A stretch of 64,000 nt of DNA from an uncultured bacterium (lineage in GTDB: Bacteria > DRYD01), in NCBI GenBank assembly GCA_937139605.1, contig CAKZQG010000044.1, positions 22,360 through 86,359 of the forward strand. Reading direction: 5' to 3'. Shown here piece after piece: positions 4,372-48,271 of this stretch. A program made the translations under genes and the position numbers. The notes below the pieces were generated by a model. The model saw only the letters and a program-made list of their open reading frames with translations. It did not search any database and had not been told where the DNA came from. The first letter of the stretch is position 1; each line of letters starts with the position of its first letter.

Positions 4372-5361
4372 TTATTGATTATCATTTAAAATATTTTCTA
4401 ATAAATTATATTTAAAAATATATCCCTTAGTTAGTAAAAATTTAGGTTTAACATTCAAACTAACTAATAAACTAAATGGAATCTCATAATATTCTTTCAT
4501 AAATAGTTTTAAAGGAAATTTTATAAAACTTCTTGGAATCTTAATAACTATACTAAAAGGCAATTTTCTATATTTATTTATTAAAAATTTTAAAAACTCA
4601 GAAAACCTTAAAATATTAGGATTAACCACATTAACCGGTTGCTTTACATTATTTAAATTATTCTCTTTTACATAACTAATTAAGAAATCAATAATTAAAG
4701 GGATTTCTTTAGAATATACCCATGGTAAAAACGGATCATCAAAAGTTAATCCAAAACCTAAGTAAGAATTTAATTTAAATAATTTAACAAACAAAGCTTG
4801 TTTATCTAAAACAATACCTAAGCGTAAATTAAAAACATTAGAATTAATAAGCTCATAAGTAACCCTTTCCCATTCAAAGCAAAGTTTTGACATTAATGAA
4901 GAATTTAGAATATTATTTCTATTAAAGTAATCTTCATCTATTTCATTCTCTATATCCTCTAAATTAGAATAATAACCAATAGCAGAAGCACTAAAATAAA
5001 CATATGGTCTAAAATTTATCTCATTAAATAATCTAACTAAATTCCTATTAAATTCTACTCTACTTTTATAAATTTTTTCATACTTGGATTTATTAATATA
5101 TCCAAAGATATTTTCCCCTACAAAATTAAAGATTAAAAATTCTTTATCTTCAATTGAATTAGTATTAATTATTTTATTTATTAAATCTGTATTTAACTCA
5201 GAATATTTTATAATTTCAATATTGTTAGAATTGTTAAAAATGGGATCTAAATTTGATCTTCTGGTAAATAAAAAAATCTTTTTAAAATAATTTAAGTTAG
5301 CGAAATGATTAAATATATTAGAACCAATTAGCCCTGTAAATCCAAAAAAAAATAGATACAT
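4372..5361 (-). CDS. NAD-dependent epimerase/dehydratase-family protein (YfcH/SDR39U1-like)
   Basis: 329 aa. The N-terminal GFTGLIGSNI is a Rossmann GxTGxxG motif. The length and C-terminal extension fit DUF1731-containing epimerase-family proteins. Confidence 0.4.
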   Translation of the reverse strand: MYLFFFGFTGLIGSNIFNHFANLNYFKKIFLFTRRSNLDPIFNNSNNIEIIKYSELNTDLINKIINTNSIEDKEFLIFNFVGENIFGYINKSKYEKIYKSRVEFNRNLVRLFNEINFRPYVYFSASAIGYYSNLEDIENEIDEDYFNRNNILNSSLMSKLCFEWERVTYELINSNVFNLRLGIVLDKQALFVKLFKLNSYLGFGLTFDDPFLPWVYSKEIPLIIDFLISYVKENNLNNVKQPVNVVNPNILRFSEFLKFLINKYRKLPFSIVIKIPRSFIKFPLKLFMKEYYEIPFSLLVSLNVKPKFLLTKGYIFKYNLLENILNDNQ

Positions 5362-5734: not shown

Positions 5735-6805
5735 TTATTTAATACCTAACCAATCGGCTACTTTGGATGTGATTTTTTCACCTACCATAGATCCTCCAGC
5801 GGCTCCAGCTATAGCGATTGCTGCTCCAGCTACAGCACCTATAGTAGTACCAATACCTGGAACCACAGAACCTGCTAATGCACCTGCAGCTGCTCCTGCT
5901 GCAATACCTCCTATTACACCGCCTGTTGTTTCAATAGCTGCTCTTTTTACTGATTTACCTTCATCAATTTTTTCTTTAAAATCAAGTCCAGCTCCAATAG
6001 TAATGGCAATAGGACCAGCTTTCTTGGCTATAGTAGATGCTACTTTACCTATTCCTTTAGCAGAAGCTTTTGAAATACCTTTTTCAGCTACTTCTTTAGA
6101 TACACTTTTTACAGCATCCTTAGCTTTAGAAGATATAACTCTTGGAGCTCTTTTTAGACTTTTAGCAGAATCTATTATTTTATCATCTAATTTGGATAGA
6201 CTTTTTACAGCATCTTTGGCTTTAGAAGATATAACTCTTGGAGCTCTTTTTAGACTTTTAGCAGAATCTATTATTTTATCATCTAATTTAGATATATCTT
6301 TTTTTGCTTCTTCAATAAATTTTTTTGCTTCAGATTTAATAACCTTAGGAGCTTTATTTTTTAATTCTTTAGCTTTAGATAATATTTTATCATCTATATC
6401 AGATAAGGTATCCTTAATTTTACTTTTAGCAAATTTAAAAGCTCCTTTTGACCCCTTTTCTTCAACATGCTTAGCAATTTTTTCTAATTTTTCTCCTTTT
6501 TTTTCAATAGCTTTTTCTATAGCACTTTCTTTTGCTTCTGAGGTTAGATAACTTCCATATTCATTGCCATTATTGTCATTTTTTTCATTTTCTTTTTTAT
6601 TTATATCTAAGGCTTTCTCAAAATTATTCTTTAATTTTTCTTGAATATTAATTTTTTCAGTATTAGATATTTTTAAGTTATTTTGAGTAGTACTTTCTGT
6701 TTTTTTGACATTATTTGAATTATTACTGCTTGATTTATTGACATATGTTTTATCTTGAGGAGAGATTGGATTATTATTTGTAGAATTATTTCTTATTGTG
6801 TTCAT
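5735..6805 (-). CDS. repeat-containing secreted/membrane protein with a C-terminal glycine-zipper hydrophobic tail
   Basis: 356 aa. It has an N/S/T-rich N-terminus and about four 32-aa tandem repeats (KLDDKIIDSAKSLKRAPRVISSKAKDAVKSLS). The C-terminus is GGVIGGIAAGAAAGALAGSVVPGIGTTIGAVAGAAIAIAGAAGG. The antisense ORF 5763..6551 is an artefact of this Gly/Ala-rich coding. Confidence 0.5.
   Translation of the reverse strand: MNTIRNNSTNNNPISPQDKTYVNKSSSNNSNNVKKTESTTQNNLKISNTEKINIQEKLKNNFEKALDINKKENEKNDNNGNEYGSYLTSEAKESAIEKAIEKKGEKLEKIAKHVEEKGSKGAFKFAKSKIKDTLSDIDDKILSKAKELKNKAPKVIKSEAKKFIEEAKKDISKLDDKIIDSAKSLKRAPRVISSKAKDAVKSLSKLDDKIIDSAKSLKRAPRVISSKAKDAVKSVSKEVAEKGISKASAKGIGKVASTIAKKAGPIAITIGAGLDFKEKIDEGKSVKRAAIETTGGVIGGIAAGAAAGALAGSVVPGIGTTIGAVAGAAIAIAGAAGGSMVGEKITSKVADWLGIK
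6103..6296 (-). repeat. near-perfect 96-bp tandem repeat (2 full copies plus degenerate flanking copies) inside the 5735..6805 CDS
   Basis: acagcatccttagctttagaagatataactcttggagctctttttagacttttagcagaatctattattttatcatctaatttgga recurs 96 bp later with two substitutions. Confidence 0.8.
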
Positions 6806-6930
6806 AAATATAGCCCCCCTTTATTAATATAGTTAACCTAATAATTAAATATTCAAAAATAATTAAAATTAAACTATTTTTAGCATTTTTTTAACAATTT
6901 TTTTACAAAATTATTTGAAAATTATATTTA

Positions 6931-8205
6931 TCATATTAAATCATATAATTTTAAAACCTTTTGATCAAGCTCTTTTTGAATATCATTTAATTCTTGTTTT
7001 GCTAATTCTTCTGTTATTTGATTAGAAAACTTTTTCTTTTGTATATCTACAGCTTTATTAAAGATTTCTTCAAATTCTTTAAGCTGTTTAGGCATTGGAA
7101 TAACAATGGGAAGCTGACGAATATCATTCATTTGTAAATTTACTGACGTATTGATGAAAGTTTTCAAGAAATTAAATAAAAGCCTTGAATTAAGCATAGA
7201 AACTAAATATTTATTTGTGGTTAATTGATGTTTAGAGTATAATGACATTGACGCCACATCATTAACTGTTTTTTCTTTTATCCTGCATTTTATAAACATG
7301 CTTTCTTCGTGAATCGGTGTAGACACATTATTCCAACAAAATCCCTCTCTAAAATATAATTGATATCCTTGCCATCTTGCTTTTGGATCTGTTTGTAAAG
7401 ACTTTACATTTTCTTTACTCCAATCTATATAATATACACTCGGAGCCCACCAACGATTACCTTCTTTATCCCCTTTATCATAAGGTACAAAAGTTTTCCC
7501 CCCTTCTATTCCATTTAGTTTTTCATCTTCTGTTAATTTATCAACATCTGCTATCTCATCTTTACTTACTATCCTGTAAATCCAACCTTGTCCAAATATA
7601 TCTCTACCATAATTTTCCTTTAAACTATCAAATAAAGTCCTTATTTCAATTTCTTTTAAATTTTTCAAATAATCAATTACATCTTGCTTAGTTTTTAAGA
7701 AAGAGAGTTCTTTGGGATTTTTATTTTTAATGAATTCTGCTAATTTTTCAGGACGCTCTTTTTTTACTTTTTCAGCCCATTTAGTTCCTTCTAATACTCC
7801 AATATATTTCCCATTATTTCCTGTTGCTAAACCTTGTCCGCCTTCTGTTATTAAACCTAATAAAGTAATATCCCCAGGTTTTAAAGAATTTCTATATTGT
7901 TCTAAATCCTTTTTATACTTTAAAATATTTTTGCTTGTAGATATTTTATCCCACCACTTTTCTATTAATTCTTTTACTTTTTTACCATATTTATTATAAA
8001 TTTTTAGATTAAAATCAGTGGGTATAAAAAAGACATTATTAACCACATTTTTATAAACTTCATCTTTTACTGAATATACTTTTTTATCTTGTAATCCATT
8101 TTTAGCATCTATAAAAGTAATGTAATAATCTGTAGCTTGAGTTTTCTGAATAATTGCTATACAAGTATCAACCATAGCAGCAGAAAATGGATTAGCAGTA
8201 TCCAC
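6931..8205 (-). CDS. C-terminal 424-aa portion of the same methyltransferase (post-motif-V catalytic remainder plus putative target-recognition region)
   Basis: The listed start is GTG with no RBS. Its frame stays open upstream for 86 nt and overlaps the end of ORF 8292..10520 by about 25 nt. The sequence FISSKTFWTIQTKKNLREHIL...LIQLVDTANPFSAAMVDTCIAI continues the MTase fold. Confidence 0.6.
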   Translation of the reverse strand: MDTANPFSAAMVDTCIAIIQKTQATDYYITFIDAKNGLQDKKVYSVKDEVYKNVVNNVFFIPTDFNLKIYNKYGKKVKELIEKWWDKISTSKNILKYKKDLEQYRNSLKPGDITLLGLITEGGQGLATGNNGKYIGVLEGTKWAEKVKKERPEKLAEFIKNKNPKELSFLKTKQDVIDYLKNLKEIEIRTLFDSLKENYGRDIFGQGWIYRIVSKDEIADVDKLTEDEKLNGIEGGKTFVPYDKGDKEGNRWWAPSVYYIDWSKENVKSLQTDPKARWQGYQLYFREGFCWNNVSTPIHEESMFIKCRIKEKTVNDVASMSLYSKHQLTTNKYLVSMLNSRLLFNFLKTFINTSVNLQMNDIRQLPIVIPMPKQLKEFEEIFNKAVDIQKKKFSNQITEELAKQELNDIQKELDQKVLKLYDLI

Positions 8206-8291
8206 TAATTGGATTAGTCTATATTTAAGTATATGTTCTCTTAAATTTTTTTTGGTTTGGATAGTCCAGAAGGTTTTTGAGGATATAAAAG

Positions 8292-10520
8292 TTAAAATCC
8301 ACCTTCTCTTAAAATTTCAAGTCCTTTAAAATAAAAATGATTGTATAAATCATCAGCAAAATTAAAATTCTTTTCTAAAATTTTTTTATACTTTTCTTTT
8401 ACTCCTTTAGTAGATACATAGGGAGGGTTACCTATAATTATATCAAATCCACTTTTTGATTTAAAAACTTCAGAAAAATATACTTTAAAATCAAAATCAT
8501 TATGTCCTAGTGTAATTTTATAGATTATATTATCAATTTCGATTTTTAAATTTTGTTTTTTTAAGGGTTCTGTTTCATTAAAATATTCGGTTTTTAGTTT
8601 TTCAAGGAGGGCAAAGTAAGCATTTTCTAATAATTCACTTTGTAGCTTAAGTAGAGAGTCGCCACAAATGATTTTATAATCTAAATTCGGAAGTGGTTTT
8701 ATATTTTGAAAATCATTTTCATCTACAATTAAGGAAAGCCAAAATCTTAATTTACATATTTCAACAGCCCCTGGATCAATATCAACTCCATAAAGTGAAT
8801 TCTCTATTACATACCTCTTTAAATCATAAGTACTTAATTTTTTATCAAGATATACCGATAGAATCTGTTTTAGTTTTAGTATTTCGTGAAGCATTCCAAT
8901 AGGAAAAGCACCAGAACCAACAGCAGGATCACAGATTTTTATCTCATCTAAAATTTCATAAATTAAATTAGCATTATTAATTATATCTTCAGGTAGTTTA
9001 TGATTATATCTTTCTGTTTTTTTAATTTCTCCTTTTTCAATTTTTTCTTTTTTTTCAGTTGCTATTTTTTCATGCTCTAAAAATAAATCTCCTAATCTTA
9101 CAAACTTTTCTATATCCTCTTTTTTTACCTTTATGTTTTTTAATTTTTTATTAAGTTCTGTTTCAATGTAGTTTATCAAACTTTCTTGACATATGTAATG
9201 AACGATTTCTCGGGGTGTATAATAAACTCCATATTCTTTATTAAATTTGTTTTCTTCTCCTTTTTTACCTGATTTTAAAATATTTACATATTCATTAAAA
9301 TTATCATCTCTTATAGCATTTAATTTTTCATAGATTTTACCAAGTAATTCAGGATCAAGTGCTACTTCTTTTTCAAGTGGTTCTTCCTCATTTACGGTAA
9401 AATTATATCTATCAAAAATATCAAGGATTCCATCTCCTATATCTCCTTCTTTGGTTTTATTTTTATTTGAAAAAAGTTCATTAGGTAAAAGTAAATCAAT
9501 ATTTATCCAATCAAAATTATTTATTGGATCAAAAAGTCCACCATTTAAAAATGGGATTTTACATTTAAAGTAATCGTAATAATGATCGTTTGATCCTCTG
9601 TCAGTTCTTAAAGCTTCGTAAAACAAAGGTTCAAGAATATCATTATAAAAGTTTTGGTAATCAACATATTCTCTATTAAACAATTTTCTTAAGAAATCTT
9701 TTGGTCCAGTTCCCCAAGGTTTCCCTTTCTCTACTCCAAACCATCCCTTCTTTTGAAGAAAATATAAGAATACAATTTGTCCAAGAATTTTCTTAGCAAA
9801 ATCAATTGTACTTATGCTTTTTTCCTTAAACTCATTTTTCAGTTTTTCATTAATATTTATAATTTTATCAAGTTCAAGTTTTATTTTTATAAATAGATCC
9901 CTATATTTTTCAAAGAATTCCTCTGTAACTATCTCAACATCAAATGCTTTTTCAAGATTAGAAAGATTAGGTTTAAAGTTATCATCTTCAAGTATAGGTA
10001 AGAATCTTGATTGTGCAGTATGACTTTTTTCATTAGGACCAACTAAGAAAGACCATCTTTTAGCAGGAGTAAAATCTTGAATAACTTTAACTTTATCAGA
10101 TATTTTAAATTTATATTCTTTTTTTACAAGAGAAAATCTCCAATCTTGTTCATTATCTGATATAAAAGCTACAAGAGCAGCATCTTTTTCACTTGTAGTA
10201 CCTAATTTCCCTTGAAGGTAATAAGCTATGAAGTTTCTTTGAGTATGTCTAGCTTTATAAAGTGAAACATCTTTTTTTAGTTTAACTATTAGAATATCAA
10301 TTATATTTTTTTCTTTATCTATATATCTACCTAATCTTTCCCAAGAGCTGATGAAATCAAGGAATCTTTCAGTTATCCCCTGTGTCCCTGTTCTTGGAGT
10401 AAGTTCTTTTTCTTTATCATAAGTTTTAAGAAGATTAGATATAAATTTATTAAAGTTATCTTTATTAAATGGGTTTTCAAAGGTTTCAATAATTAATTTT
10501 TTTGCCTGTTCTCTGTTCAT
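8292..10520 (-). CDS. N-terminal 742-aa portion of a large gamma-class N6-adenine DNA methyltransferase (Type IIG / BREX PglX / DISARM DrmMI-like); the reading frame ends inside the catalytic domain
   Basis: Motif X YGVYYTPREIV, motif I ICDPAVGSGAFPIG and motif IV IIGNPPYVSTKG occur in gamma-class order. A roughly 440-aa N-terminal domain precedes them. The ORF stops right after the motif-V-like FYFKGLEILREGGF. Confidence 0.7.
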   Translation of the reverse strand: MNREQAKKLIIETFENPFNKDNFNKFISNLLKTYDKEKELTPRTGTQGITERFLDFISSWERLGRYIDKEKNIIDILIVKLKKDVSLYKARHTQRNFIAYYLQGKLGTTSEKDAALVAFISDNEQDWRFSLVKKEYKFKISDKVKVIQDFTPAKRWSFLVGPNEKSHTAQSRFLPILEDDNFKPNLSNLEKAFDVEIVTEEFFEKYRDLFIKIKLELDKIININEKLKNEFKEKSISTIDFAKKILGQIVFLYFLQKKGWFGVEKGKPWGTGPKDFLRKLFNREYVDYQNFYNDILEPLFYEALRTDRGSNDHYYDYFKCKIPFLNGGLFDPINNFDWINIDLLLPNELFSNKNKTKEGDIGDGILDIFDRYNFTVNEEEPLEKEVALDPELLGKIYEKLNAIRDDNFNEYVNILKSGKKGEENKFNKEYGVYYTPREIVHYICQESLINYIETELNKKLKNIKVKKEDIEKFVRLGDLFLEHEKIATEKKEKIEKGEIKKTERYNHKLPEDIINNANLIYEILDEIKICDPAVGSGAFPIGMLHEILKLKQILSVYLDKKLSTYDLKRYVIENSLYGVDIDPGAVEICKLRFWLSLIVDENDFQNIKPLPNLDYKIICGDSLLKLQSELLENAYFALLEKLKTEYFNETEPLKKQNLKIEIDNIIYKITLGHNDFDFKVYFSEVFKSKSGFDIIIGNPPYVSTKGVKEKYKKILEKNFNFADDLYNHFYFKGLEILREGGF

Positions 10521-10688
10521 AGCTTAGTACCTCACTTATCTTTTTGTTTATTTTAAAAACAATTTAGCCAATAGGTACTTTTTTACAATTTGTATATTTA
10601 CAATTTGTATAAGTATTTTTTAAGCAAGCTAAGTAAATATTTAGCTATTATTGATTTTTTTATTATTTTTTGATTAATTAATTTTTTT

Positions 10689-10780
10689 TGCGTCTTTATT
10701 GCGCCTTTATTGCGCCTTTTGCTTTATTGTGTCCCCTTTGTGTCCCCTTTATGTCTCCTTTGTCCCCTTTGTGTCCCTTT
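10689..10780. repeat. array of 9-11-bp GC-containing direct repeats with roughly 11-bp periodicity
   Basis: gcgtctttatt gcgcctttatt gcgccttttgctttatt gtgtcccctt tgtgtcccctt tatgtctcctt tgtcccctt tgtgtccctttt. These are islands of GCGCC / GTCCCC in an otherwise AT-rich region. The array spans the stop codon of ORF 10749..11066 and lies 170-270 bp upstream of the MTase start. Confidence 0.75.
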
Positions 10781-11066
10781 TAATTATTAAAGTATAATGA
10801 GTACCTTTTCCTGTTTCTCCGATTTGCTCAAGTATTCCTTTCTCAACCAAGTCAGATAGATCTCTTGAAGCGGTTTTTTTAGTTGTCTTATTTAGTTCTT
10901 GATATTCTTTATTAGTTATTTTTCCTTTTTCTTTTACATAAATTACTGATTTTATTTGACGTTCATTTAATCCCATTTTTCTCAAATTTTCCTTTTTATG
11001 GAAATAATTTATACAACTAATCATTTCTTGATATATATAATGATAAAATAACTTCTCTTTTTCCAT
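10749..11066 (-). CDS. small winged-helix DNA-binding protein (the true start is probably at the internal Met, giving about 75-90 aa)
   Basis: LNERQIKSVIYVKEKGKITNKEYQELNKTTKKTASRDLSDLVEKGILEQIGETGKGTHYTLI resembles the C-terminal wHTH of AlbA_2/HATPase_c_4-type regulators (ITN.EY......S..TA.RDL..LV..G.L...G.G..T.Y.L). The 5' 50 nt overlap the upstream helicase gene. The C-terminal KGTKGTKET tail is encoded by the repeat array. Confidence 0.45.
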   Translation of the reverse strand: MEKEKLFYHYIYQEMISCINYFHKKENLRKMGLNERQIKSVIYVKEKGKITNKEYQELNKTTKKTASRDLSDLVEKGILEQIGETGKGTHYTLIIKRDTKGTKET

Positions 11067-14000
11067 CTTTTGATGGATTTACATTTATAGAGTGATCTTT
11101 AACAAAAGAAGGATGAATTTCTTTTTGTAATATAGTTAAGACTTTTAAAGGGTTTTCAATTTCTTTGTTAAGCTTTTTAATTTCTTGATTAACTTTTTGG
11201 ATTGTCTTTTTCGGAATTGATCCTATTTCAAGGCTTTTAATAATTATATTTATATAATCTTCTTGTTCTTCTGTTAACTGCTTACTATTTTTTAGTACAG
11301 CTTTTAAAAGATTTTTAAGTTCTTTTGAGGAATCTTTCCCTTTTTTATTAAAATCTTCAGATAAAATTTCTTCTTCATGAATCGCTTGGAAAAATAATAA
11401 TTTATTTTTTTCAAGAAGTTCATAATATCTTTCTAAAGGTAACTTAGTTTTGGGTTCATTTTTTGAACATTCAAAAATTTTTGCTGTCGTTAAAAAATCA
11501 ATCTCTTTTGTTTCATTATCTGAAGATAAATAAAACTTCATTAATTTTCCTTTCCTAAAAAATGTTATAAGTGAATCAGGATATACTAAAGATTTAAGAT
11601 TTTTATCAAAATTTTTTGAAGCTCTTGCTTTTTTAGGTAATTTCTTTATCTTTTCAAATAAATCTGGATTTTCGTCTCTTATTTTCTCAATAAATTTCAA
11701 ATATTTTAGTTCATTTTCTTCAAAAATTTCATCCTCAAGGAAAATTTCTTGAGATGTCAATTTATTAAATAACTCATGAGAAGAGATAGGTTCTCCTTCA
11801 GTTAAAATTTCAGCATCTCCACCAAGAAGACTTAAAAATGCTTCTACCTTTGAACGTGCTATTTTTAATAACTCTATCTCATTCTCTCCCTGTTCTGTTG
11901 GTAAGAAATTAAAAATATAAATTTTATCAAATTGAGTATCTATACGATTTACTCTTCCTACTCTTTGAATTAACTTTGTGGGATTCCAAGGTATATCATA
12001 GTTTATCACTATATTTGATCTATGTAGATTAACCCCTTCTGAAAGAACTTCTGTTGAAACAAGTATTCTATAATCATCTCTTTTATTTTTAGCTCTAGCA
12101 TCAAAATTATCTATAACTTTATTTCTATCCTGTTCTGATGAATTTCCATCAAAACGAAGAGATAATTCACCAAATTTTTCATTTATACTATTAACTAAAT
12201 ATTCTGCAGTTTCTCTCGATTCTGTAAATATTATGACTTTTTTGTCTTTTAAAATAGGATTATTTTCAAGATTATTAAGTAAAACTTCAAGTTTAGGATC
12301 CCTTTCTATTTGATTCCACATTTCTTGAATTTTTTTAAGAGTATTTAGATCTTTTTCTAGAGCTTCTTTAAAATCCTCTCTAAATTGATTAGTTGGATAT
12401 TCATCAGCTTTTCCTTCTTCTATTAAATTTTGTATTGCTTTATCATCATCACTTTCTAAGAATTCTATTATTTTACTTATATGTTTTTTACTTATAAAAA
12501 CTTTTTTATTTTCTTCATATATTTTTATAAACTTTTCATAAGAATCAATAAATCTTGTTATACTTTTTCTAAATGCATAAAAACTACTTTCAAGACGTTT
12601 AATAAGTAAAACTTTCATAAACCCTGCAAGATTTTTTTGCGCTTGTATTTCATTTTTTATGTTATTGTGATTTATTTCATCTTTAAGGTAAAGTAAAGGG
12701 ATGTAACGAGAATAAGTAAGTTCTTTAGTTAAAGTTTCAATAGTTTTATTAAAAATTTCATTCTCTGTTTGATTAAGCTGATAAAGTAAAGGCTTTGGAG
12801 CTTCTATTTTGGGAAATTTAATATTATTACTTTCTAAATCTTCTTTAAAATAAGTTTCTATATCTTTTCTAGTTCTTCTTACCATTACATATTTTAGAAC
12901 TTTATTTCTTATTTCTTTTGCTATTTCCCTTGTTTCTTTTATGTATTCATCATAGTTATTTGAGCGATCAAGATTTTTTAGCTTTGCCTGTAAAGATAAG
13001 AAAAAATTTTCTAAATTTGGAACCCCTGGTATTGTACTTTTTTTAGCATTTTGAAAAAGTTTAAGTTGCGCAAGAATATCTTTTGGAGAGTTATTATAAG
13101 GAGTAGCAGATACAAGAATAACTCTTCTACCTCTACAAATTTTAGAAAGTTTTTCATAACTTATGGTTAATTCATTCCTAAAACGATGAGCTTCATCAAT
13201 TACAATATTTTTATATTCTCTTTGATTAATAAGATCTTCAGCTTCCTCAAGTTTCCCAGTAGATACATATTCTGCAGAAATATTAAAATCAGAAAAAACG
13301 TTTTTCCAAGAGCCTGGATTATTTTTATTAATTAACGAGGGGGGAGCTATAACCATAGTTCTTCCATCAAGCTGAGATACAAGCATAGCACAAACATAAG
13401 TTTTTCCAAGACCTACAACATCTGAAATAAATACTCCCCCATATTCCTCAATTATCTTTTTAGCATTTAATACAGCTTGCTTCTGATATTTAAGCTCCTT
13501 GAAATTTTCAGGTAAATATTTATTATCTAGCTCATTTAGATAATTTAGCTCATCTTTAAAATACTCATACAAAAATTTTAAATATATCTCATAGGGTGTT
13601 ATATTTTCGTTAATATAAGTTTTTTCATTTATCGTATTTACAAAAGTTTCATTAAGTTCCACTGATTTTTGCCAAAGTTCCTCAAATTTAATTTTAGCAA
13701 ATTCGTAATCACTCCTATTTTTTAGTTCAACATTAAACTCAAGATTATTGTCTAAACCTGATTGAGTTAAATTACTAGATCCTGTAATAACTCTCCCTAT
13801 ATCCCTATCTCCTTCCTTAAACGTTATAATATACAATTTAGCATGTAATTTTTTGGAAGGATAAGCTCTTATTTCAAGCTTACCTGATTTTATCCATTCA
13901 ATAAATTTCTTAACTCCTTTCTCTACACTTTCACTATCTTCTGATTCTTCTAACTCTTCTATTATTTTTTCTTCTAAAAATTGCTTTACTTCATAATTAG

Positions 14001-14280
14001 AGGGATTAAAAAAAGTTGTATTTTCAGATTTTGATTTTGTTATTAACTCATAAATTTTCTCTGAAGCATCAATTCCTACAAGAATCCTTATTTTTTCTAT
14101 ATTTTCTAAAGCTTTGTATATATTATGAAATCCACTTAAATAAAAATATCCTACTATACAATCAAAAAATCTAGCATCGTTTAACAATATATTAAACCTA
14201 TCTTTTAACGTTTTACCTTGTTCATTAGTTATAAATGTTAAATCTAAGGAATTGAATTTTAAGTTTTCCATTTCTTTCAT
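11017..14280 (-). CDS. PLD-family (HKD) nuclease domain fused to an SNF2-family helicase
   Basis: 1087 aa. The HKD motif is KLHAKLYIITF...GSSNLTQSGL (about aa 150-190). The SNF2 N-lobe has GLGKT and the DEAH box VIDEAHRFRN. The helicase C-lobe has VSTEVLSEGVNLHRSNIVINYDIPWNPTKLIQRVGRVNRI. A roughly 270-aa C-terminal extension follows. Confidence 0.75.
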   Translation of the reverse strand: MKEMENLKFNSLDLTFITNEQGKTLKDRFNILLNDARFFDCIVGYFYLSGFHNIYKALENIEKIRILVGIDASEKIYELITKSKSENTTFFNPSNYEVKQFLEEKIIEELEESEDSESVEKGVKKFIEWIKSGKLEIRAYPSKKLHAKLYIITFKEGDRDIGRVITGSSNLTQSGLDNNLEFNVELKNRSDYEFAKIKFEELWQKSVELNETFVNTINEKTYINENITPYEIYLKFLYEYFKDELNYLNELDNKYLPENFKELKYQKQAVLNAKKIIEEYGGVFISDVVGLGKTYVCAMLVSQLDGRTMVIAPPSLINKNNPGSWKNVFSDFNISAEYVSTGKLEEAEDLINQREYKNIVIDEAHRFRNELTISYEKLSKICRGRRVILVSATPYNNSPKDILAQLKLFQNAKKSTIPGVPNLENFFLSLQAKLKNLDRSNNYDEYIKETREIAKEIRNKVLKYVMVRRTRKDIETYFKEDLESNNIKFPKIEAPKPLLYQLNQTENEIFNKTIETLTKELTYSRYIPLLYLKDEINHNNIKNEIQAQKNLAGFMKVLLIKRLESSFYAFRKSITRFIDSYEKFIKIYEENKKVFISKKHISKIIEFLESDDDKAIQNLIEEGKADEYPTNQFREDFKEALEKDLNTLKKIQEMWNQIERDPKLEVLLNNLENNPILKDKKVIIFTESRETAEYLVNSINEKFGELSLRFDGNSSEQDRNKVIDNFDARAKNKRDDYRILVSTEVLSEGVNLHRSNIVINYDIPWNPTKLIQRVGRVNRIDTQFDKIYIFNFLPTEQGENEIELLKIARSKVEAFLSLLGGDAEILTEGEPISSHELFNKLTSQEIFLEDEIFEENELKYLKFIEKIRDENPDLFEKIKKLPKKARASKNFDKNLKSLVYPDSLITFFRKGKLMKFYLSSDNETKEIDFLTTAKIFECSKNEPKTKLPLERYYELLEKNKLLFFQAIHEEEILSEDFNKKGKDSSKELKNLLKAVLKNSKQLTEEQEDYINIIIKSLEIGSIPKKTIQKVNQEIKKLNKEIENPLKVLTILQKEIHPSFVKDHSINVNPSKDGKREVILSLYISRND

Positions 14281-14311
14281 ATTATCTATAATAAAAAATA
14301 TGATCTTTAAT

Positions 14312-17300
14312 TTAATTAATTTCGTTTAGAATATATTTTTTAGTTAAGGTATTAGATTTAAGGAATTCTTGATAAGTATCTTGGAAAATAATATACCCTC
14401 CTTCATCTGCAGCTTTAGGACCTACTTCTATTACATAATCAGCATTCTTTATAACTTCTATATTATGTTCTACTATTACAATAGTTGCTCCCTTATTTAG
14501 CAATTGATAAATAACATTTAGAAATTTTTGGACATCTAAATAATGTAATCCAGTAGTAGGTTCATCTAAGAGATAAATAGATTTATTAACATTCCTTTTA
14601 GATAGTTCATAAGCTAATTTAATTCTTTGACTTTCTCCACCTGATAAAGACGGAGAAATCTGACCTAACTTGATATACCCTAATCCTATGTCATCTAAAA
14701 ATTTTAATTTCTCTTCAACATTTTTAAACCCTTTAAACACATTAATAGCTTCTTTTACAGTTAATTCCAAGACATCATAAATACTATATTTATTATCAAA
14801 TTTAACACTTAATGTTTCTAAATTATATCTCTTACCATCGCAAGATTCACATTTTATATATAAATCAGGTAAAAAATTCATATCTAATTTAATAAAACCT
14901 TCTCCTTTACATTTATCACATCTACCCTCAGGTAAATTATAACTAAATCTACTGGCATTAAACCCTAATCTCTTTGATTGAGGTAAATTAGCAAATATAG
15001 ATCTTATCTCATCAAATACTTTAGTATAAGTAGCAACTGTAGATCTGGGAGTTTTACCTATAGGTTTTTGATCTACATAACTTACTTTACTAATTTTTTG
15101 CTTATCAAACTCTATATCTCCGTAAATTTTTTCATCAAATACACTAATAACCTCTTGATTTAATTCGGAAGCTAATTTGTAATATAAAGCATCTAAAATA
15201 GAAGTTTTACCACTACCTGATACTCCTGTTATAACTGTTAATCTATTTAATGGAATCTTTATAGATATATTTTTTAAATTGTTTAACTTAACATTTTTTA
15301 AATATATATAATCTTCTTGATTGAATTTTTTAATATAGTCCTTTTCAATGTTTTTAACTTTTTCTTTATCAACTAAATATTTTAATATAGGGCTATTTAA
15401 AAATTTTTCATATAAATTTAAAATCTCTTTTTTAAGTAATTCCGGTAAATCTAATATTTTTAATATTTCTTCTAAATTTCCATTGTTGTTATACAAAGAA
15501 TTTAGAAAATCAAAATTAAAAGTATTAAATAGTTCAAAATATTTATTAAGAAAATCGGAAAATAAAAGGTACCCACCATTTTGCCCACCTTCATATCCTA
15601 ACTCTACTAAAAAATCAGCGTTCTTAATTACTTGTTTATCATGTTCTACAATTATAATTGTATTATTTAATTCTTTTAGTTTTAAGATGCTTTTAATAAC
15701 TTTATCTACATTATAAGGGTGTAATCCAATAGTTGGCTCATCTAAGACGTATATAATACCGGATAACTGAGCTCCTAATTGTGAAGCTATTTTAATTCTT
15801 TGTGCCTCTCCTGAAGATAAATTAGAAGCAGTCCTATATAAATCTAAATACCCTAAATCTAATTCAATTATAAAATTTAACCTTTTTACAACCTCATCTA
15901 GTAGATTTTGTACAATTTCTCTTTGTTTTTGAGTTAATTCTAAAGAATTCAGTATATTTTTTATTTGACTAATTGGCTTAGAGGCTAAATCTCCAATACT
16001 ATAATACTTTTCATCATTTGTTTTTAACTTAACACTTAAAGCTATTTTATTTAATCTATAACCATTACATTCTTTACATTTAACTTCGAAAACTAAATTA
16101 GATAAATCAAAATCATAATTGTAATACAATTCATTAACGAATTCTCTAATCCCTTCAAAATTAGAATCTCCATAAATAAGTTTCTCTATTTTTTCTTTAT
16201 CAATATTTTTTAGAGGTTTATTAATATCAATGTCGTTAGCATAGCAAAAGTTCCTAACTTTTTCCCACCAATAATTTAATTTATACCAAGAATATTGGTT
16301 TTTAGGAAAAATTTTAATAGCTCCTTCTTTTATTGATAAATTATAATCTATTATTTTATTTAGATTAAAATCAATAACATTTCCTAAGCCTTTACATTTT
16401 TCGCAAGCTCCTAAAGGGGTATTAAAAGAAAATAATCTCCAACTTATTTCAGGATAACTAAAACCACAATTATAACAACTAAAGCTCCCTGAATATAATA
16501 AATATTTATCATCTACAAAAATCTTAACCAATTTCTGCTTTTCTTTATCTATAGATAGTTTCAAAGTAGTATCCATCGCTAACGATATCGAATTTAATAA
16601 TCTACCTTTATTATTTTCATTTACTATAAGATTATCTACTATGACATCTATATTATGTTTTTCAAATTTATTTAATTCAATTTCATCGTCTATATCAAAT
16701 TTAATATCATTAACAATAACCTTAGTAAAACCCATTTTTTTAATTTTGTTTAAAGTGATTTTATGGTCTCCTTTTTTATATCTAATTACAGGAGCTAAGA
16801 TAGATATTTTTTTATCTTTGTAATTTAGAAGAATTTGTTCTAAAATTTCGCTTGGCTCTAATTTGGATATAACTATATTACAAAATGGGCAAAATGGAAT
16901 CCCAATAGAAGCATATATTAACCTTAAATAATCATAGATTTCAGTTATAGTCCCGACAGTAGAACGAGGATTTAGATTTTTAATCCTTTGATCAATTGAG
17001 ATAGTAGGTCTTAAACCTTCTATTTTATCTACATTAGGCTTTTCTAATTTAGTTAAAAATTGCTTTGCATAATTAGAAATAGCTTCTAAATATCTTCTTT
17101 GACCTTCAGAATATATAACTTCATAAGCTAAACTACTCTTACCACTACCAGAAACTCCACATATAACTGTTATTACATTATGCGGAATTTTTAAATTTAA
17201 TCCTTTTAAATTGTTTTGCTTTACATTTGTTATATCTATATAACTCTGAACTTCTGGATCTTCAAAAAATCTTTCTTTATAAAATGGAATATCACTTTTT

Positions 17301-48090: not shown

Positions 48091-48163
48091 GGGCCCCTAG
48101 CTCAAGTGGCAGAGCATGCGGCTCATAACCGCAGGGTTCTAGGTTCGAGTCCTGGGGGGCCCA
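48091..48163 (+). tRNA. tRNA-Met (anticodon CAT; elongator or tRNA-Ile2 type)
   Basis: GGGCCCC TA GCTC AAGTGGCA GAGC A TGCGG CTCATAA CCGCA GGGTT CTAGG TTCGAGT CCTGG GGGGCCC A folds as a 73-nt cloverleaf. It lacks the GGG/CCC initiator-type anticodon stem. CCA is not encoded. Confidence 0.85.
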
Positions 48164-48271
48164 TTAAATTCTTATGTTTAGGTCCCAGGCCTAGGGGGGG
48201 AGCCATTAAATTCGTATGTTTAGGTTCCATGCCTAGGGAAGTCATTAAATTCGTATGTTTATGTATCAACG
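48151..48271 (+). repeat. three degenerate tandem copies (about 40 bp each) of the tRNA-Met 3' end plus its downstream flank
   Basis: The copies are cctggggggcccattaaattcttatgtttaggtcccagg, cctagggggggagccattaaattcgtatgtttaggttccatg and cctagggaagtcattaaattcgtatgtttatgtatc. The first copy is the true tRNA 3' end. Confidence 0.7.

Follow-up and report, generated by a model that had tools for sequence, protein, structure and literature searches.

A helically phased repeat array at the 3' end of a decayed Schlafen-GHKL-wHTH gene is a candidate binding-site array of the encoded winged helix

We analysed a short tandem repeat array in a 64-kb stretch of DNA from an uncultured bacterium (contig CAKZQG010000044.1), referred to here as the window. 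The array lies at the 3' end of a 105-aa open reading frame (ORF) encoding a winged helix-turn-helix (wHTH) domain. Arrays of the same kind stand at the 3' end of most genes of the family from which this ORF derives, and their core sequences covary with the recognition helix of the encoded wHTH. From this comparison of sequences we consider it likely that the array is the cognate tandem binding-site array of the C-terminal wHTH of prokaryotic Schlafen-GHKL-wHTH genes, a family that appears in the literature as 'pSlfn HisKinase-HTH' or as 'Schlatpase' with an HTH (helix-turn-helix) domain (PMC13056530; bioRxiv 10.64898/2026.05.29.728809; PMC12839542). In the window, the strain comparison identifies the array and the 105-aa ORF as the relic of a decaying defence island, because a 1.1-kb deletion took the Schlafen and ATPase domains.

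The repeat array in the window

All genes around the array are on the minus strand, which is the gene strand, in the order uvrA, HKD-SNF2 helicase, 105-aa wHTH ORF, array, AT-rich spacer and methyltransferase. The array spans positions 10688-10780 (minus) with a period of about 11 bp; five units are of the GGGGACA type and three of the form G(G/A)CGCA, with a degenerate unit between the two groups. The repeats that the original prediction had placed at 10689-10780 were thus present as described, both in the sequence itself and in the output of Tandem Repeats Finder. The program reports TTTATTGCGCC in 3.3 copies at 10684-10719 (score 58) and TTGTGTCCCCT in 5.2 copies at 10727-10781 (score 75), the two best period-11 arrays of the window among those listed. 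On the gene strand the proximal units are of the AAAG-GGGACA type (unit AAAGGGGACAC, 5.2 copies, period 11), and the first of them begins 13 nt past a conserved G..G..Y motif at the end of the wHTH. The units are as follows.

10730..10780, minus strand: proximal array, five direct units repeating every 9-11 bp, each an A-rich spacer and the core GGGGACA or one of its variants GGGACA and GGAGACA
10778-10772, minus strand: proximal core 1, (A)GGGACA
10767-10761, minus strand: proximal core 2, GGGGACA
10758-10752, minus strand: proximal core 3, GGAGACA
10747-10741, minus strand: proximal core 4, GGGGACA
10736-10730, minus strand: proximal core 5, GGGGACA
10718..10729, minus strand: C-AATAAAGCAAA, which separates the two arrays as a degenerate unit or linker, kept in strain L180
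10688..10717, minus strand: distal array, three units, AAAGGCGCAAT, AAAGGCGCAAT and AAAGACGCAAA
10716-10711, minus strand: distal core 1, GGCGCA
10705-10700, minus strand: distal core 2, GGCGCA
10694-10689, minus strand: distal core 3, GACGCA

The stop codon of the ORF (TAA, 10751-10749) falls within the array, so that about half of the array is untranslated. The ORF end does overlap the repeats as had been proposed, but the encoded tail reads KRDTKGTKET and not KGTKGTKET. Measured from the methyltransferase ATG (10520), the array lies 168-260 bp upstream, against the 170-270 bp given before. The surrounding GC content, described earlier as below 20%, is 15-22% in the flanks (80-nt windows) and 19-31% across the window (2-kb bins), and the array itself reaches ~38-40%. 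No second cluster of either motif occurs inside the 64-kb window, and the observed match counts were unmatched by 100 of 100 shuffles; a generic dispersed repeat, which had been named as a refuting outcome, was not seen there.

Scans for other signals returned little. An Rfam scan of the whole window at gathering thresholds recovers three tRNAs only, and a permissive scan of 10400-11100 yields chance matches only. The array RNA has no predicted structure (minimum free energy −7.3 kcal/mol over 131 nt, z = −1.9). From the array through the spacer to the start of the methyltransferase, a promoter scan detects nothing promoter-like. A terminator scan of 10300-11200 finds none in or near the array, the single terminator-like site lying at 11062-11077 on the plus strand in the overlap of helicase and ORF.

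The adjacent ORF is a deletion remnant

The wHTH gene had been taken for a stand-alone controller. It is instead the C-terminal remnant of a Schlafen-GHKL-wHTH gene that is present at full length in the related strain L180.

10749..11066, minus strand: 105-aa ORF, remnant of a Schlafen(AlbA_2)-GHKL-wHTH gene, from homology, an AlphaFold model and the L180 orthologue
10985..10997, minus strand: junction of a deletion of ~1.1 kb in which the Schlafen and GHKL domains were lost, AAAAAGGA joined to AAATTTGAG, microhomology AGGA(A)

Homologues of the ORF are the C-terminal ends of proteins with AlbA_2 (Schlafen), HATPase_c_4 (GHKL) and wHTH domains, which carry PF04326 and PF13749. Homology to the family is limited to positions 10788-10994 (about ORF residues 25-93), equivalent to residues 379-447 of the full-length protein, and is the only match to this family in the window. 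The first ~25 aa of the ORF come from the out-of-frame 3' end of the helicase gene and from former intergenic DNA, and its tail comes from the array. The junction was found by aligning window positions 10980-11014 with positions 15290-15350 and 16440-16470 of L180; it can also be given as AAAAAGGA joined to AAATTT, where the helicase 3' end is fused out of frame to the wHTH codons. An AlphaFold model of the ORF has helices at residues 35-47, 52-59 and 63-75, a wing at 79-93 and a disordered tail, with a predicted local distance difference test (pLDDT) score of ~90 in the domain. Structural comparison assigns the fold to the DNA-binding winged helices of MarR/ArsR/Fic-C type, with the centromere binder AspA of pNOB8 among its neighbours.

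In L180, whose UvrA is 98% identical, an intact 446-aa Schlafen-GHKL-wHTH gene stands between the same helicase and the same methyltransferase, and behind it come the array, the spacer and the 15-bp repeats known from the window. Among named lineages, the closest UvrA sequences come from Endomicrobia, WOR-3, Elusimicrobiales and Helicobacter, at ~40-43% identity. The comparison of copy number between strains, proposed in the original prediction, did uncover differences of whole 11-bp units: five proximal and three distal units in the window against seven and two in L180 (two more proximal, one fewer distal). According to the model, however, only a disordered tail is altered, and there is no sign of a phase switch. 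In L090-L095 a second deletion removed most of the wHTH and all GGGGACA units, leaving one and a half distal units, and an insertion of 2.5 kb separates what remains of the array from the methyltransferase. L181 has no island at this site, and L182 has another restriction system there, composed of an N6_N4 methyltransferase (1012 aa) and a Res-like helicase. The site downstream of uvrA (~6900-14300) is a hot spot for defence islands: the window and L180 have the Schlafen gene there between the HKD-SNF2 helicase and the Type IIG methyltransferase; in L090 an extra N6_N4 methyltransferase (287 aa) module has been inserted.

Arrays accompany the gene family across Bacteria and Archaea

We gathered 80 loci of the family from genomes and 80 from metagenomes, which gave 130 non-redundant loci from many bacterial phyla and several archaeal lineages. 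An array was counted where Tandem Repeats Finder placed its beginning at most 60 nt from the wHTH end, and a stricter filter served for the comparison with control gene ends. Homologues in unrelated organisms have K/G-rich tails (KGDTKGT..., KGDKGDIKGSQRGQKG...) that are the GGGGACAnAAA repeat translated in three frames, and their DNA holds the same kind of array as the window. Arrays were found in 118 of the 130 loci, in 111 of these 118 at a distance of 0-30 nt, with a period of 11 in 109 loci and of 9 in nine loci. Under the stricter filter an array was present in 109/130 family loci and at 5/401 other gene ends in the same DNA; at least two of these five are themselves family arrays that the filter had missed.

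The unit consists of a 7-bp GC-rich core, mostly ending in CA, and an A-rich spacer of ~4 bp, mostly in 3-5 direct copies (4.14 ± 0.87 in 66 full-length genes). In 15 loci the gene's stop codon precedes the array, in 61 it falls within the array and in 42 it follows the array; each of the three reading frames occurs, and on average 40% of the array bases are 3' of the stop codon. This disregard for frame and stop codon, together with the disordered tail and the lack of RNA structure or an Rfam match, argues that the array acts at the level of DNA. Arrays are on the sense strand and often abut the next start codon. The genes that follow differ among loci and include hsdS, a PglZ-like gene, helicases and Type IIG methyltransferases, and the array is thus a property of the wHTH gene and not of its neighbour. 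A proximal array is present in 66 of 70 full-length genes. Truncated genes make up 32 of the 102 loci with enough upstream sequence, and 26 of the 32 keep the array. Near-identical genes have the same copy number in 23 of 35 pairs, and differences of one unit also occur.

The units occur neither upstream of the family genes nor elsewhere within 4 kb on either side of them, and the complete 125-kb plasmid pRMAR01 of Rhodothermus marinus has no second such array besides that of the gene itself. Among 2.9 million viral contigs such arrays are essentially absent: a search for two-unit patterns of the two commonest cores gave four matches, none beside a wHTH and none part of a longer array. The window itself has the features of the class, with an array within ~30 nt of the G..G..Y motif, on the gene strand, with period 11, a core of a known type and a Schlafen-derived gene.

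Several loci show rearrangements. P0002, P0008 and P0009 (L002, L006) are independent internal-deletion derivatives between hsdM and hsdS, in which the extreme N-terminus (ESQNIEFKESWRDE) is retained, as are the C-terminal wHTH and the array behind it. Besides the window, arrays in series occur in L023, L029, L035, L053, L056, L085 and L137, and L017 (3870-4300) holds at least five kinds; some are apparently inverted (TTGGCGATTAG). A conserved spacer (GGTAATGAAAGTAATGATTAGGAAACTG) in multi-array loci is common to different phyla, and even to Bacteria and Archaea. In L079, direct repeats of 88% identity at 2674-2824 and 4405-4499 flank the Schlafen-wHTH gene, and L034 has a similar pair (80-110 bp); these repeats duplicate the start region of the downstream gene and look like the signature of an insertion, in 2 of 50 loci only.

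The core sequence covaries with the recognition helix

The cores form a small set, of which GACGCCA is the commonest; it includes GGGGACA, GGGCTCA, TTGCACA, GGGGTCA, AGGGGCA, GGGGCCA and others (such as GGGCTAA). In the alignment of loci, each core type is accompanied by residues characteristic of it where the third helix begins: Lys in column 28 with GGG, Glu, Asp or Asn with GAC, Lys-Pro with GGGCTCA and Arg-Asn with TTGCACA. Alignment columns 33, 28, 29 and 27 carry the most information on the core per bit of their own entropy. They correspond to R68, K63, K64 and T62 of the window ORF, that is, to positions 6, 1, 2 and −1 of its recognition helix (residues 63-75), which are the positions that usually contact bases. 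The window pairs T62-K63-K64...R68 with GGGGACA, as do 16 other GGGGACA loci, with a helix region (T/I)(K/I)(K/R)T.SRD. The distal type of core goes elsewhere (L065, L088, L168) with the helix region KER..T(M/I)(D/E)L, and the window encodes no protein of that type.

Among pairs of proteins at least 75% identical outside the helix, the core is shared by 79% if columns 28-29 agree and by 20% if they differ. Over 68 full-length genes, the distance between cores correlates with that between the four helix columns (r = 0.50), against r = 0.06 for the 352 columns of the Schlafen and GHKL domains. Three hundred random sets of four columns from elsewhere in the wHTH, many of them nearer to the array, gave a mean r of 0.095 and a maximum of 0.345. 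With so weak a correlation for these columns and for those of the Schlafen and GHKL domains, the association of helix and core is not explained by simple linkage or by common descent. In the same 68 loci neither the helix (r = 0.01) nor the array (r = 0.06) follows the N-terminus. As specificity class and array are uncorrelated with the Schlafen-GHKL phylogeny, the sequences imply frequent swapping or rapid co-evolution of a 3' module made of wHTH and array. The original prediction had proposed helically phased binding sites for the wHTH, and the family-wide covariation indicates that it was probably right, although binding itself is an inference from sequence.

A proposed mode of binding

In the arrangement that we propose, each wHTH would read one core in the major groove through positions 1, 2 and 6 of its recognition helix, with its wing laid over the A-rich spacer. 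Neighbouring wHTH domains would then sit head to tail, one per helical turn, by analogy with the geometry of PhoB/OmpR boxes, which would dock the protein immediately past its own gene, ahead of the next defence gene. About four units would suit an oligomer, and in a Schlafen-Argonaute relative the GHKL domain drives the formation of tetramers (bioRxiv 10.64898/2026.05.29.728809). As to the role of such docking, we would guess that the array serves an oligomeric tRNA-cleaving enzyme (tRNase) as chromosomal scaffold or tether, or, as a second choice, that it forms a roadblock and so tunes read-through into the restriction gene downstream. A more elaborate form of the scaffold idea, which we regard as doubtful, is that about four wHTHs of one oligomer on about four units hold the tRNase off or poised, that loss of DNA contact during infection leads to abortive infection, and that helix-core pairs form a re-programmable code keeping paralogues apart. 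Contact would be lost through breakdown of host DNA, through DNA-mimic anti-restriction proteins or through altered transcription of an invaded restriction or BREX operon.

Several points weigh against a cognate binding-site array. All contact between the wHTH and the units is inferred from covariation, and the oligomeric state and head-to-tail binding are borrowed, by analogy, from PhoB and from a different Schlafen-GHKL protein (for the latter, bioRxiv 10.64898/2026.05.29.728809). Between 12 and 21 of the 130 loci have no detectable array. A quarter of the loci, the window included (30/122), carry two to four or more serial 11-bp arrays with different cores, and the extra arrays of another core type have no cognate protein in view; they either serve proteins acting in trans or are old arrays that linger. 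Sister strains have lost the array without visible compensation. The ORF of the window lacks an obvious ribosome-binding site and begins with a spurious N-terminus, and its wHTH protein may not be made at all.

Alternative explanations

The original prediction favoured an operator through which the small wHTH would control the downstream methyltransferase in the manner of the C protein of a restriction-modification system. The array does sit between the two genes; in many loci it fills the whole gap of 70-110 nt before the next defence gene, so that a protein sitting there could obstruct read-through or an internal promoter, and wHTH-only remnants with arrays are common, as seen in the truncated genes. 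We consider this unlikely, since the array accompanies the wHTH gene whatever lies downstream, and since its repeats are direct and lie at the gene's 3' end, with no copies upstream, where palindromic C-boxes in a promoter would be expected. Moreover, the ORF, a deletion remnant, encodes a winged helix like those of MarR, ArsR and Fic-C, and no C protein of the Xre type. At this locus, the promoter scan is empty between array and methyltransferase, the methyltransferase is frameshifted, and a separate 15-bp repeat lies nearer its ATG. In L090-L095, the array is mostly deleted and decoupled from the methyltransferase by the 2.5-kb insertion. A controller-operator arrangement for the defence module is therefore not supported. 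An element acting in RNA, intercistronic or in the 3' untranslated region, bound or cut by the Schlafen ribonuclease (RNase) or serving translational coupling, is less probable still. It would fit the constant sense orientation of the purine-rich array and its frequent contact with the next start codon, and some cores resemble a Shine-Dalgarno sequence (AAAGGGG, AAGGAG); Schlafen domains are RNases (PMC13056530). But the cores TTGCACA, GACGCCA and GGGCTAA do not resemble one, there is neither predicted structure nor an Rfam match, and some arrays are apparently inverted. The period is that of the DNA helix, and the covariation is with the base-reading positions of a DNA-binding helix and not with the Schlafen domain.

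Two further explanations treat the arrays as by-products or as unstable sequence. They might lack any function today and be the scars or recombination joints of wHTH cassettes that replaced one another in succession, in line with the several core types in series, the L090 deletion that removed the gene and left distal units, the lack of linkage between array type and N-terminal phylogeny, and the 80-110-bp flanking direct repeats of two loci. This is very improbable to us: the proximal array is well kept in full-length genes (66/70), copy number stays narrowly around four, repeats without function are not expected to hold a helix-matched core across phyla, and the flanking repeats occur in 2 of 50 loci only. 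The least probable of all is a slippage-prone, length-variable switch (phase variation), an idea also raised in the original prediction. Units are indeed gained and lost as wholes between the window and L180, and near-identical genes elsewhere differ by one unit. Against this, copy number is equal in most near-identical pairs, the change touches only the disordered tail or untranslated DNA, 11-bp units compare with the 1-7 bp typical of contingency loci, and the array lies outside both the promoter spacer and the ORF body; there is no sign of such a switch.

Some candidates were rejected outright. A known RNA family, a structured RNA or a terminator does not agree with the absence of an Rfam match, a fold or a terminator in the array. 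A low-complexity tail driven by coding is contradicted by a period that is not a multiple of three, by stop codons at any position and by the disorder of the modelled tail. A dispersed repeat was rejected for want of other clusters in the window, within 4 kb of the family genes or on pRMAR01, a phage target for the near-absence of arrays from viral contigs, and an autoregulatory operator at the gene's own promoter for the lack of upstream units. A cassette with target-site duplication would require more than the few flanking direct repeats seen.

Neighbouring genes and other elements of the window

11017..14280, minus strand: HKD (PLD)-SNF2 helicase, upstream defence-island gene
8292..10520, minus strand: Type IIG-like (Eco57I/MmeI-type) methyltransferase, N-terminal part (PDLC03596, 864 bits)
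10582..10611, no strand assigned: perfect 15-bp direct repeat in two copies, TTTACAATTTGTATA, with a TACAA-N-TTGTA palindrome in each copy (Tandem Repeats Finder)

The methyltransferase is split by a 1-nt frameshift near 8290 (8280-8300), at which ...REGGF is followed by a stop and the sequence GG-ILTFISSKTFW... resumes in another frame, and it continues in the ORF at 6931-8205. In L180 the gene is split elsewhere (497+666 aa), and in L090 it is called as a protein of 1191 aa. These differing breaks suggest independent inactivation in each strain, or sequencing errors.

The 15-bp repeat lies inside the AT-rich spacer, 62-91 bp upstream of the methyltransferase ATG, and is kept in L180 and L090; in L090 the 2.5-kb insertion parts it from the methyltransferase. 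It is an element separate from the array and a better candidate than the array for an operator or promoter element of the methyltransferase; it may be an operator for some regulator. The spacer also holds TAGCTA and TAGCTT (10630-10665, minus strand), and no rptR-like gene lies nearby. The repressor RptR of Type I restriction islands has TAGCTA as its minimal site (PMC12255303); the presence of TAGCTA here is probably due to chance in AT-rich DNA.

Elsewhere in the window, two degenerate copies of the 3' end of tRNA-Met with a 39-bp period follow the tRNA-Met gene (48091-48261) and look like attachment sites left over from serial integrations; the GC skew changes sign in the 48-50 kb bin. A tandem repeat of 96 bp in 2.2 copies (93% matches) at 6095-6303 lies inside a 356-aa ORF (5735-6805), whose product is of low complexity, rich in Lys, Ala and Ser, with a Gly/Ala-rich C-terminus.

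Comparison with known systems

Schlafen HisKinase-HTH proteins, or 'Schlatpases' with a C-terminal HTH, are the family of the window remnant and are likewise found in Type I restriction-modification, BREX and Type IIG loci. Proteins of the Schlafen-ATPase-HTH type are reported to be the most frequent prokaryotic Schlafen architectures: among prokaryotic Schlafens, 34% are HisKinase fusions and 19% HisKinase-HTH fusions (PMC13056530), an HTH is present in over 90% of the C-terminal tails of 'Schlatpases' (bioRxiv 10.64898/2026.05.29.728809), and the family lies inside restriction or BREX loci in at least 1017 taxa (PMC12839542). The same three papers describe the proteins as tRNase effectors, as ATP-driven tetramers in an Argonaute fusion and as a proposed 'backup suicidal effector', and we found no mention of repeat arrays or of a ligand of the HTH in their texts. 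Nor did we find a description of the arrays in the open-access literature on the Schlafen, AlbA_2 and HATPase_c_4 families, which covers the genes. The gene family is thus known, and the arrays as a class are apparently undescribed.

A cis array that tracks the helix would supply a concrete candidate DNA ligand for each protein and an apparent code from residue to base (Lys-GGG, Glu/Asp/Asn-GAC). The arrays would offer a handle on how these tRNases are silenced or triggered, and make the sensing domain of the commonest prokaryotic Schlafens approachable by experiment. A point for annotation is that the K/G-rich "tails" of the family proteins, like many small ORFs labelled "ATP-binding" or "RecG-like", are by-products of the array and of gene decay. 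Taken alone, the window gives a modest result, relic repeats in a decaying defence island and not a regulator of the methyltransferase.

A similar anatomy is that of the pho box, in which a conserved 7-bp core and a 4-bp A/T-rich spacer form 11-bp direct repeats bound head to tail by winged-helix domains. PhoB/OmpR boxes and the arrays share the 11-bp period, the 7+4 layout, the direct orientation and a reader of the winged-helix type, whose wing would suit an A/T-rich minor groove. Pho boxes, however, stand in the promoters of target genes, usually in 2-4 units, and are read by a response regulator, whereas the arrays stand at the 3' end of their own reader's gene, that reader being the tail domain of a Schlafen-ATPase protein. 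Plasmid Rep proteins bind iterons of 17-22 bp, and parC of plasmid R1 has 11-bp repeats bound by ParR, a ribbon-helix-helix protein. Like the arrays, these are cis-linked direct repeats beside the gene of their binder, with a specificity that differs among relatives. In contrast to them, the family loci have no Rep, Par ATPase or origin context and lie in chromosomal restriction or BREX operons. A plasmid iteron or partition centromere was rejected for the window, with its 11-bp units and with uvrA, a helicase and a methyltransferase as neighbours on a chromosome-sized contig of up to 1.88 Mb.

In ToxIN, a Type III toxin-antitoxin system, structured ToxI units of ~36 nt lie upstream of the toxin gene with a terminator between them. 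Tandem repeats beside the gene of an abortive-infection RNase are common to both, but the arrays are made of 11-bp, unstructured, downstream units that covary with a DNA-reading helix. Type III toxin-antitoxin repeats (~34-36 nt, structured, upstream) were rejected, as the units are of 11 nt, downstream and accompanied by neither structure nor terminator. So was a G-quadruplex, since G runs occur only in cores of the GGGG type and are lacking in GACGCCA, TTGCACA and GGGCTAA, and so was a C protein with its C-box, given neither an Xre-type HTH nor palindromic promoter boxes. For the repressor RptR, the promoter of a Type I restriction-modification defence island contains three direct repeats of 9 bp (PMC12255303). 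RptR resembles the arrays and their reader in combining a small DNA-binding protein with short direct repeats and in its tie to such islands, but its sites have palindromic TAGCTA cores over the −10 box upstream of rptR, the first gene, and it is neither a winged helix nor fused to an effector (PMC12255303). What distinguishes the arrays from pho boxes, iterons, parC and RptR repeats alike is their place at the 3' end of their reader's own gene, the fusion partner of that reader and their breadth across Bacteria and Archaea.

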